A DNA stretch of 64,000 bases from Paecilomyces variotii (taxonomy: Eukaryota), in NCBI GenBank assembly GCA_004022145.1, contig RCNU01000006.1; one strand, 5' to 3'. The position numbers were made by a program, and so were the translations under genes. Each line of letters opens with the position of its first letter. Positions within the stretch are counted from its first letter, which is position 1. This document shows, piece by piece, positions 53,587 to 54,900 of the stretch. The notes beneath the pieces are model-generated. The model had not been told where the DNA came from. It did not search any database and saw only the letters and a program-made list of their open reading frames with translations.

Positions 53587-54900
53587 ATGATGTCTGTGGT
53601 ATATACGGCAAAAGAGTGCCTCGAGCACCCAACGGTGGATCAGCGCAACAGCCACCTACATGCTTTACCAAGACTATACTCACCGGTTTACTCGCCTGTT
53701 CGCATCCCATCAGACACTCAGAGTTCTACAACTCAGACTGGGAATTACAGTATCTCTCTGGAGAAGCCCTCAATCCATGGATCCCCAAGTGCCAACTTAG
53801 CCGTTCCCAAACTGGGCAGACTCGGCATCTGCGCGATGGATGAAAAGGTTCTCAGCAAGGCGAACCAAGAGATATTCCGCCGCTTACAAGGAAATGGAGA
53901 TCTCGAGATTGTATACTTTGGCGACCAGACTTTAGTTCAAAGGCCTGTGGATGAGTGGCCAACCTGCGACTTTCTGATCGCCTTTTATTCCGACAACTTT
54001 CCATTGGATAAGGCGATTTCATACGTTGAGTCTCGGTTGCCAATTTGTTACAACGACCTGCTCATGCAGAAACTTCTCTTGGACCGTCGTCTTTGCCACA
54101 GAATCCTGCAGTTCCTCGGTCTGCGAACTCCCAAGAGGCTGGAAGTTAACCGTGACGGCGGCGCCAGGGCATATGATTGGAAACTTTTCAAGCACGTCTA
54201 CGATGTTTTGGGATTAAGGCTTCCAGGGCCTTCAGGACATGATAATGGCGACCAGATCCCCTACCATTCTAATGTGTCTCTATCAGAAGACGGGAATACG
54301 CTCTTTGTTGATGGTCAAAAGCTGCACAAACCTTTTGTTGAGAAGCCTGCAAGTGCAGAAGACCACAACGTTTATATCTACTTCCCTAGCACTGCTCAAA
54401 GTGACGGAGGAGGGAGAAGGCTGTTCCGAAAGGTTGGCAACAAATGCTCAGAGTATGACCCTTCCTTGGTCACGCCTCGATGCATCATGGAGCAGGACAA
54501 TAGCTATGTATACGAGCCACTTTTGAATGCCGACGGCGGTGAAGACGTCAAGGCCTACGCAGTGGGCCGTACCTATTGCCTTGCTGTCACGCGTAAATCT
54601 CCCGTTCTTTCTGATGTTGTTGTGCGAGAAGCCGATGGCAGAGAAAAAAGACAAGCTACGACTCTCTCCAGGGAGGAAACAGAAGCTGCGACTAAAATTG
54701 CGCTCACATTTGGTCAGGCAGTCTGCGGATTCGATATCGTCAGGAACAAAGGAAAGAGCTATGTCATCGATGTCAATGGCTGGACGTCGGTCAAGAATCA
54801 GCCTGCTTTCTATGATCGTTGTGCCTGTATTCTTCGACAGATGCTTACCTCTCGGTTAGAGAGTAGCAACAGAAATGCAGCGTCGACGAATGGAGATTAG
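53587..54900 (+). CDS. Vip1/Asp1/PPIP5K-family inositol pyrophosphate kinase, ATP-grasp kinase domain only, intronless
   Basis: LGICAMDEK, EWPTCDFLIAFYS..FPLDKAI, KPFVEKP..EDHNVYIYFP, GGRRLFRKVGN, DVKAY, RKSP, FGQAVCGFD, SYVIDVNGW; stop codon shortly after the kinase domain. Confidence 0.9.
   Translation: MMSVVYTAKECLEHPTVDQRNSHLHALPRLYSPVYSPVRIPSDTQSSTTQTGNYSISLEKPSIHGSPSANLAVPKLGRLGICAMDEKVLSKANQEIFRRLQGNGDLEIVYFGDQTLVQRPVDEWPTCDFLIAFYSDNFPLDKAISYVESRLPICYNDLLMQKLLLDRRLCHRILQFLGLRTPKRLEVNRDGGARAYDWKLFKHVYDVLGLRLPGPSGHDNGDQIPYHSNVSLSEDGNTLFVDGQKLHKPFVEKPASAEDHNVYIYFPSTAQSDGGGRRLFRKVGNKCSEYDPSLVTPRCIMEQDNSYVYEPLLNADGGEDVKAYAVGRTYCLAVTRKSPVLSDVVVREADGREKRQATTLSREETEAATKIALTFGQAVCGFDIVRNKGKSYVIDVNGWTSVKNQPAFYDRCACILRQMLTSRLESSNRNAASTNGD

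Follow-up and report, generated by a model that had tools for sequence, protein, structure and literature searches.

A stretch of 64,000 nt from the genome of Paecilomyces variotii (contig RCNU01000006.1 of assembly GCA_004022145.1), hereafter termed the window, was found to contain a single-exon gene encoding a stand-alone kinase domain of the PPIP5K/Vip1/Asp1 family. This gene is a second, diverged, kinase-only copy present in addition to a normal full-length vip1 located elsewhere in the genome, and it belongs to a conserved kinase-only family of Paecilomyces, Aspergillus and Penicillium. The recognition of this clade is new, its member sequences being already public under automatic protein names that hide two different architectures. 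In current models, the level of 1,5-InsP8 (an inositol pyrophosphate that acts as a eukaryotic messenger of phosphate and energy status) is set by the balance between the kinase and the phosphatase within one bifunctional PPIP5K. A natural kinase without this brake, maintained alongside the canonical enzyme by moulds that include industrial and toxigenic species and are experimentally tractable, offers a ready-made test of the bifunctional-balance model, and it raises the questions of whether unopposed synthesis is tolerated, whether expression is conditional and whether the substrate has changed.

Gene model and kinase family

The open reading frame (ORF) starts at the first ATG downstream of an in-frame stop codon (stop-to-stop frame from 53581) and encodes 437 aa without interruption. 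An earlier reading made from the letters alone (the sequence-only reading) had named in it the motifs of the PPIP5K kinase, all of which were located in the window protein: VEKP (251-254), DHN (259-261), LFRK (279-282), DVK (320-322), RKSP (336-339), GFD (381-383) and DVNG (395-398), with the C-terminus lying 38 residues past DVNGW. In Pfam, residues 79-166 matched PPIP5K2_N (PF18086) with E=5.4e-31 (107 bits for a curated cut-off of 35), and residues 356-400 gave a borderline match to the RimK-type ATP-grasp family PF08443 (21.5 bits for a cut-off of 21). Among solved structures, the kinase domain of Saccharomyces cerevisiae Vip1 (9gr8_A) was matched by residues 75-419 with E=2.6e-103, followed by the Schizosaccharomyces pombe Asp1 kinase (8e1h, E=3.5e-92) and human PPIP5K2 (E=1e-72). 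Moreover, an AlphaFold (AF2) model built on an alignment of 118 sequences, which replaced a run on 12 sequences with a mean predicted local distance difference test score (pLDDT) of 40.6, reached a mean pLDDT of 84.7 and a predicted template modelling score (pTM) of 0.82. Compared with 9gr8, 8e1i and other chains, this model gave target-normalised template modelling (TM) scores of 0.90-0.95 and root-mean-square deviations of 1.7-2.6 Å. The top 15 structural matches were all Vip1, Asp1 or PPIP5K2 kinase chains, whereas the next fold class (ITPK1, RimK and Ddl) reached TM scores of only 0.60-0.71. The window protein is a member of the PPIP5K/Vip1/Asp1 kinase-domain family, the match being far beyond chance. 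Upstream of the kinase domain, residues 14-75 could still be aligned to residues 39-92 of the canonical P. variotii Vip1, and a loose N-terminal motif common to the clade described below (MSxLYKLA...LPSP) was recognised in the alignment, more diverged in the window protein, the relatives likewise starting with MMS/MS..Y.

The deposited model of the reference strain differed from this ORF. The public P. variotii protein of 311 aa (P0003) is identical to the window ORF letter for letter except for the first Met and residues 121-245, which are removed as an in-frame intron of 375 nt. Such an intron would have a poor donor (GTGGAT) and would excise the centre of the ATP-grasp fold. In contrast, the gene is annotated with 436-437 aa and without this intron in twelve other named P. 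variotii records, and the stretch is kept by all relatives in the alignment. The locus was also covered by contigs of run X2, which was taken as true RNA because the contig of the neighbouring transporter gene is spliced at both of its GT..AG introns; these are 56 and 58 nt long, compared with the 375 nt deposited for the kinase gene. The X2 contig 54024-54957 (934 nt) runs unspliced across the supposed acceptor of the 375-nt intron, with no joint reported. Since the annotations of other strains, the relatives and the unspliced contig agree against it, the single-exon model of 437 aa is held to be right and the deposited intron is most likely an annotation artefact, so that a wrong gene model of the reference strain is corrected here.

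A second copy without the phosphatase half

The histidine-acid-phosphatase domain (PF00328) was not found by Pfam in the window protein. When the 64-kb window was searched by tblastn with two full-length Vip1 proteins, the ORF was the sole match (all others with E>0.8), and no phosphatase-like remnant was detected in the 53 kb upstream or the 9 kb downstream of it. Furthermore, 343 bp separate the stop codon of the ORF from that of a convergent transporter gene (at 55244), whose spliced frame is open over 527 codons and whose X2 contig contains both joints. This agrees with the statement of the sequence-only reading that no room is left for further exons.

A separate full-length vip1, which the sequence-only reading had advised to look for, was found in the protein records of the same strains. 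The short protein and a Vip1 of 1259-1260 aa are both present in strains DTO021C3, DTO164E3, DTO032I3, DTO166G4 and DTO271G3 and in the reference strain, in which the short protein is the mis-modelled one of 311 aa. The window protein is 50% identical to the kinase domain of the Vip1 of its own species. Given this separate protein of 1260 aa and the distinct clade to which the short one belongs, the window gene is not the ortholog of the single-copy Vip1 of the species, and it departs from the canonical bifunctional architecture, PF00328 being absent from the same polypeptide. A truncated model of a sole vip1, or a sole vip1 lying at an assembly break, was ruled out by the stop codon, the convergent spliced gene and the coexistence of the canonical Vip1 in the same strains, and the second, diverged, kinase-only copy proposed in the sequence-only reading was thus corroborated. 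In addition, the gene is known as 14 protein variants across many P. variotii assemblies, the number of contigs being similar to that for the canonical gene, and is also present in six whole-share runs of undetermined type. The proposed location in an accessory segment gained no support, and neither did an origin by retrocopying or horizontal transfer.

The kinase-only clade

Among proteins of similar length, 18 clusters shared the motif GWTSVK and, mostly, A-V-T-R-x-S-P, and all 18 carried PF18086 without PF00328. The longer proteins among the matches listed (120) were all bifunctional (PF00328) and at most 57% identical to the window protein. In a Pfam scan of 11 proteins, PF00328 appeared in none of the 8 short-clade proteins bearing the kinase domain. 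A profile search turned up no additional short-clade cluster; most members scored 599-823 bits, the canonical fragments reached at most 538 and the members from section Fumigati 532-534. Over 20 named species were represented among the clusters, with identities of 55-63%. According to the cluster look-ups, the clade is found in P. variotii, in Aspergillus section Flavi (A. flavus NRRL3357, A. oryzae, A. parasiticus, A. tamarii, A. nomiae, A. alliaceus, A. avenaceus and others), in A. tanneri (section Tanneri), A. hancockii, Penicillium daleae and another Penicillium, and in section Fumigati (A. felis, A. udagawae, A. lentulus as fragments, and A. pseudoviridinutans). No short-clade cluster was named for A. 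fumigatus, A. niger, A. nidulans or Talaromyces, a count of predicted proteins only and no proof of absence. All aligned members end 10-25 residues past the kinase domain. The three deviations from the usual Vip1 sequence listed in the sequence-only reading (GWTSVK, LAVTRKSP and VLSDVVVRE) were all real, but only the third is peculiar to the window protein, the relatives having (A)VTG.VHR there, since GWTSVK and AVTRKSP are fixed signatures of the clade in the more than 20 named species.

Three partial or mis-modelled rows (P0046, P0078 and P0119) were omitted before maximum-likelihood trees were built from the kinase domain. In these trees, the short proteins formed one clade, with 17/17 rows (of 49) and 27/27 rows (of 59). 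Support in the Shimodaira-Hasegawa-like approximate likelihood ratio test (SH-aLRT) was 100 and the stem length was 0.76-0.77, in agreement with the kinase-only clade for which the sequence-only reading had suggested such a tree. Within it, Paecilomyces, Penicillium and Fumigati were each supported with 100, and Flavi plus Tanneri with 85. Although the place of the short clade among Pezizomycotina is affected by its long branch, a tree constrained to group it with 20 canonical rows of Eurotiales was as good as the free tree in the approximately unbiased test (p-AU 0.51). As the subgroups follow taxonomy and the constraint was not rejected, it is enough to assume an ancient duplication, at the latest in the Eurotiales ancestor, with repeated losses afterwards, and nothing in the trees points to the horizontal movement that had been proposed.

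A metagenome scan returned 80 loci, none of them from the short clade (best identity, 52%). Among these, marine loci L002-L041 had been taken as candidate kinase-only genes for their many intronless 41-42% matches to the kinase domain and were rejected on the two that were checked, L004 and L014. With ORFs of 1244 and 1256 aa, these two are normal PPIP5K genes of full length from marine eukaryotes with few introns. Two short PPIP5K kinases of Tricladium varicosporioides (P0035, 428 aa, ending 33 residues past the motif, and P0046, 353 aa) also lack the phosphatase domain and carry the canonical motifs (GWSFVK and HAETRKSP); this Leotiomycete may have gained a kinase-only duplicate of its own, unless the models are truncated. 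In section Fumigati, models P0019, P0021, P0301 and P0305 are 481-847 aa long with long N-terminal extensions, and P0297-P0300 and P0307 have 380 aa. These extensions are shared with separate proteins of 216-384 aa named F-box-containing. A fusion to an F-box was rejected, the Pfam match on a 216-aa fragment being below threshold (E=0.0086) and the models being probably merged genes. Two genes near each other occur in A. pseudoviridinutans (Asppvi_010933 and Asppvi_010938).

Active site and evolutionary constraint

The residues of Asp1 were mapped by hand onto the window protein via the structure-match alignment (chain index +29 for Asp1 numbering, anchored on D333, N335 and K341), with the roles of the residues taken from the available parts of PMC9765450 and PMC9239264. 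The equivalent positions are given in Table 1. The nine-residue cationic cage for 5-InsP7, which includes K322, is kept whole in the window protein, the only change being K to R at position 352. According to the available text of PMC9239264, activity is abolished in the Ala mutants of Asp1 H204, R223, K260, D321 and D333. The equivalents of this essential set are kept among the 17 short rows: H260, K322, D383 and D395 (the catalytic Asp of DVNG highlighted by the sequence-only reading) in 17/17, and R281 in 16/17 plus one gap. Residues K87, R167, K253, E258, E310, D320, R355, N397 and K403 were also identical in 17/17 rows, and R336, like R281, in 16/17, the remaining row being a gap in the gene model. 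Position 282 was K in 12 rows and R in 4, and position 352 was K in 12 and R in 5.

Regarding variation within the species, the 14 P. variotii protein variants, all of 436-437 aa, differed at 38 columns, which included 0/18 functional positions. Between the window protein and that of DTO271G3, the most divergent strain, there were 18/345 differences in the kinase domain, 10/75 in the N-terminal tail and 5/17 in the C-terminal tail, so that the tails are 2.5-5 times more variable than the domain. Moreover, the entropy per column was correlated between the short clade and the canonical one (rho 0.56 over 336 columns), and 135/203 columns conserved in the canonical proteins keep the same residue in the short clade. 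Taken together, the invariant functional positions, the slower kinase domain, the entropy correlation and the retained columns show purifying selection, as judged from protein sequences, on an intact active site.

Transcription

Transcription of the kinase gene was weakly shown by run X2, whose unspliced contigs on the locus cover 53139-53598, 53822-53972 and 54024-54957; the stretches 53599-53821 and 53973-54023 of the ORF are without cover, which is no evidence either way. The last contig ends 57 nt past the stop codon, where a short 3' untranslated region is probable, and the next one, that of the neighbour, begins at 55124, a weak hint that the kinase gene and its neighbour form two separate converging transcripts. 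Runs X1, X3 and X4, labelled metatranscriptomic, were discarded as expression evidence, their contigs being unspliced through the introns of the neighbour and therefore DNA-like and uninformative. The PHO box CACGTG occurred 8 times in the 64-kb window (8.7 expected) and was absent from the 5 kb preceding the ORF.

From an upstream ATG at 53463, an out-of-frame ORF of 126 codons (53463-53843) extends over the kinase start codon. The first X2 contig (53139-53598) covers this ATG, and a long leader with this upstream ORF is possible.

Proposed mechanism and alternatives

The conservation of the active site suggests that the ORF probably encodes an active stand-alone 1-kinase for inositol hexakisphosphate (InsP6) or 5-InsP7 with no built-in phosphatase. 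A partial duplication of vip1 would have taken the N-terminal region and the ATP-grasp kinase before Paecilomyces, Aspergillus and Penicillium diverged, and the histidine-acid-phosphatase half would either have been missing from the duplicate at the outset or have disappeared later. The duplicate would have been kept as a protein of about 420-440 aa in many lineages of Eurotiales and lost in others. ATP and two Mg2+ ions would be bound via K253, E310, D320, H260, D383, D395 and N397, InsP6 or 5-InsP7 would be held in the same cationic cage as in Asp1, and the gamma-phosphate would be moved to the 1-phosphate, giving 1-InsP7 or 1,5-InsP8. Without a phosphatase in cis, the output would not be self-limiting, and control would have to be exerted by expression that is low or conditional and by pyrophosphatases acting in trans (canonical Vip1, Nudix and Siw14-type). 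Low or conditional expression is to be expected because excess IP8 is described as harmful, abstracts reporting this for fission yeast when pyrophosphatases are missing; such expression would fit the weak RNA signal, which does not in itself demonstrate it. We infer the enzymatic activity, the product and the physiological role of the window protein from its conserved residues, and the two outcomes put forward in the sequence-only reading, synthesis of 1-InsP7/InsP8 without a brake or a new substrate, may be regarded in the same way.

Several observations weigh against a 1-kinase of unchanged function. To begin with, changes have accumulated in the kinase domain at about 4.5-5.6 times the rate of its canonical counterpart. 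For the same pair of strains (window and DTO271G3), the canonical kinase domain showed 4/350 differences compared with the 18/345 of the kinase-only one, and in the tree the path from A. alliaceus to A. oryzae was 0.225 in the short clade and 0.043 in the canonical one, that from A. avenaceus to A. oryzae being 0.49 and 0.087, respectively. This fast evolution could reflect relaxed constraint instead of the maintenance of an identical function. Secondly, 24 of the 203 columns conserved in the canonical proteins (≥90%) carry a different residue that is fixed throughout the clade, including D85E, R89L, W165F, G257A, S287C, Q311P, F312L, E334V, V340A, D342T, S400T, F401S and N405Q. These switches lay within 3 residues of ligand contacts in 13/24 cases, compared with 47/161 for other conserved columns (odds ratio 2.9, Fisher p=0.02 in a post hoc test), and near the cage residue K87 a conserved Arg is lost (R89L) and an acidic residue is gained. 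Such clade-fixed switches beside ligand contacts suggest a possibly altered substrate capture or kinetics. Variation is also seen at further positions: R347, the equivalent of R285, is R in 14 and Gln in 2 of the 17 short rows, although R285A is described as without effect on Asp1 (PMC9239264, available text); Fumigati members have TRPSP in place of TRKSP; and K91E appears in 3/14 P. variotii variants at a position (window 53857-53859) that is Lys in 17/17 short-clade rows and 33/35 canonical rows. Finally, the RNA evidence is thin, coming from one run with short contigs of low depth that cover upstream intergenic DNA too. Separately, K142E was likewise counted in 3/14 variants.

Of the alternatives, a neofunctionalised kinase survives best and is considered possible, though rather unlikely. 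It would have kept the ATP-grasp chemistry and shifted its acceptor preference, regiospecificity or substrate capture towards a new activity, and might use another inositol polyphosphate isomer or make a different inositol pyrophosphate (PP-InsP) instead of being a second source of 1,5-InsP8. A change of specificity is kept alive by the clade-fixed switches enriched near ligand contacts (e.g. D85E, R89L, G257A, Q311P/F312L, E334V, S400T/F401S and N405Q), whose fixation across genera fits a selected new optimum, and the long stem branch points the same way. However, all the contacts of Asp1 with ATP, metals and inositol phosphate are kept or conservatively replaced, the enrichment is of modest significance and was tested post hoc, and no role is given to the switched positions in the literature examined, with 0 occurrences in PMC9765450 and no paper in a PPIP5K2 search by residue names. 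With a similarly low likelihood, Eurotiales moulds including A. flavus and A. oryzae may keep a dedicated second PP-InsP kinase whose active-site surroundings are remodelled, either with a changed acceptor or positional specificity or having escaped the control by phosphate sensing that acts via the phosphatase domain of Vip1. The following remodelling is cited for it: at the substrate entry a conserved Arg has disappeared and an acidic residue has appeared, the switch E334V lies next to the cage residue R336, and SF has become TS next to K403. If true, these moulds would have a separately wired PP-InsP signal.

A non-catalytic role, in which the protein would bind InsP or PP-InsP or hydrolyse ATP as a regulator (e.g. 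a ligand buffer, a sensor or a competitor of Vip1), is improbable. The fast evolution and the apparently low transcript level would suit it, and the Asp1 kinase domain is described as having substantial intrinsic ATPase activity and non-productive modes of ligand binding (PMC9239264 and PMC9765450, available parts), but the strict retention of both metal ligands, H260, K322 and R281 by all members is what a phosphotransferase needs and would be superfluous for a pure binder. A decaying relic, that is, a dead retrocopy or duplicated fragment under neutral drift and unexpressed, is strongly disfavoured: the single exon, the missing phosphatase domain, the patchy distribution (none named for A. 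fumigatus, A. niger, A. nidulans and Talaromyces) and the weak RNA evidence speak for it, yet the frames are open with the same length in 14/14 P. variotii variants, over 20 named species retain clusters that are 55-63% identical, the active-site residues are invariant, and both the kinase domain and 135/203 columns are preserved as detailed above. Equally implausible is an artefact (a truncated model of the only vip1, by assembly break or missed exons) or an accessory gene that was gained by horizontal transfer or is specific to a strain; annotation here is unreliable, as the false intron of 375 nt shows, and the 35-57 kb region has lower GC content and an AT-rich block, but the stop codon with a spliced gene converging 343 bp on, the lack of phosphatase-like sequence in the 53 kb upstream and 9 kb downstream, the canonical Vip1 of the same strains, and the clade subgroups following taxonomy with Eurotiales origin not rejected all argue to the contrary.

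Comparison with known systems

As the closest families, the canonical fungal Vip1, Asp1 and VlpA (9gr8; 8e1h, 8e1i and 8e1v) have a homologous ATP-grasp kinase (47-55% identity, TM score 0.91-0.95), with the same metal ligands, ATP contacts and nine-residue cage and an alignable N-terminal region. In contrast, the window protein has 437 aa and not 1260, is without the C-terminal histidine-acid-phosphatase and is encoded in addition to the canonical gene; it also falls in a separate clade with a stem of 0.76, an evolution about 5 times faster and 24 clade-fixed substitutions. The human PPIP5K2 kinase (3t7a, 3t9c and 5bya) shares the fold and the active-site logic (TM score 0.91-0.93), but it is more distant (38-39% identity in the structural alignment) and part of a large bifunctional protein.

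The closest system in architecture is Ppip5k of Dictyostelium discoideum (56 kDa, DDB_G0284617), in which the phosphatase domain is described as completely absent and which rescued yeast vip1-delta (available text of PMC8885430). It is a precedent that a kinase-only PPIP5K can work, the likeness being one of architecture only. Unlike the window gene, it is presented there as the homologue of the amoeba and not as an extra paralog, and its host is an amoebozoan instead of a fungus. Independent domain loss in Dictyostelium and in Eurotiales is the default assumption. The same architecture is in effect found in Asp1(1-385) and asp1-H397A of S. pombe and in Mpvip1-delta-dp of Marchantia. In the available text of PMC9239264, the isolated Asp1 kinase domain synthesises IP8 efficiently and derepresses pho1 as strongly as the full-length protein with a dead pyrophosphatase, and Marchantia lines without the phosphatase domain alone are mentioned in the available part of PMC13573052. 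Whereas these are laboratory constructs that replace the sole gene and raise IP8, the window gene is natural, is accompanied by an intact Vip1 and has been maintained in several genera.

In the part available of a survey of inositol-phosphate kinases (PMC8024741), one PPIP5K is tabulated per fungus and the dual-domain structure is said to occur "usually". No description of a fungal kinase-only paralog was found in the full-text literature searched, outside of which lie most subscription journals and supplements, and none in the available parts of the 2026 review PMC13573052 or of the fungal pseudophosphatase survey PMC13216928; likewise, a literature search by locus tags returned no papers.

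Genomic surroundings

The features of the window are collected in Table 1.

Table 1. Features located in the window and residues of the window protein equivalent to those of Asp1
Feature	Position	Strand	Details
Kinase-only PPIP5K/Vip1 paralog, complete single-exon coding sequence	53587..54900	+	437 aa, stop included, ORF intact
N-terminal residues 1-64, predicted disordered	53587..53778	+	pLDDT <50
ATP-grasp inositol-pyrophosphate kinase domain, residues 75-420	53809..54846	+	Family and fold matches, conservation table
In-frame 375-nt intron of the deposited reference-strain model	53947..54321	+	Protein P0003, 311 aa
Short 3' untranslated region, probable	54901..54957	+	End of X2 contig past the stop codon; weak hint
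Convergent MFS-like transporter	55244..56941	-	527 aa, three exons; introns 56211-56266 and 56514-56571 (GT..AG)
Fet4-like low-affinity iron permease	45796-47319	-	PF04120, three matched stretches; gene-poor 41-57 kb stretch
DUF3632 gene	48678-49511	+	Upstream of the kinase gene
Metal ligands			Asp1 D321, D333: window D383, D395
Equivalent of Asp1 N335			Window N397
ATP contacts			Asp1 R123, K197, H204, E248, D258: window R167, K253, H260, E310, D320
Bridging residue			Asp1 K260: window K322
Cage residues			Asp1 K43, R223, K224, R274, R285, K290, R293, K341: window K87, R281, K282, R336, R347, R352, R355, K403

The assignment of the convergent gene to the major facilitator superfamily (MFS) is a lead only, given by an Atlas feature score of 0.99 to MFS clusters, and Pfam found no match on its separate exons. 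In the wider window, core genes were recognised (UBP, Trm732, Tim17, a protein kinase, a dihydroxy-acid dehydratase, a lipase and a RAI16-like gene), and the 41-57 kb stretch holds the iron permease, the DUF3632 gene, the kinase gene and the transporter. No ORF of at least 110 aa was found from 34920 to 40525. This interval includes an AT-rich block of 4 kb (36001-40000) with a GC content of 0.22-0.23, compared with 0.42-0.56 elsewhere in the window, which looks like a degraded repeat, possibly mutated by repeat-induced point mutation (RIP), between the core genes and the 41-57 kb stretch.

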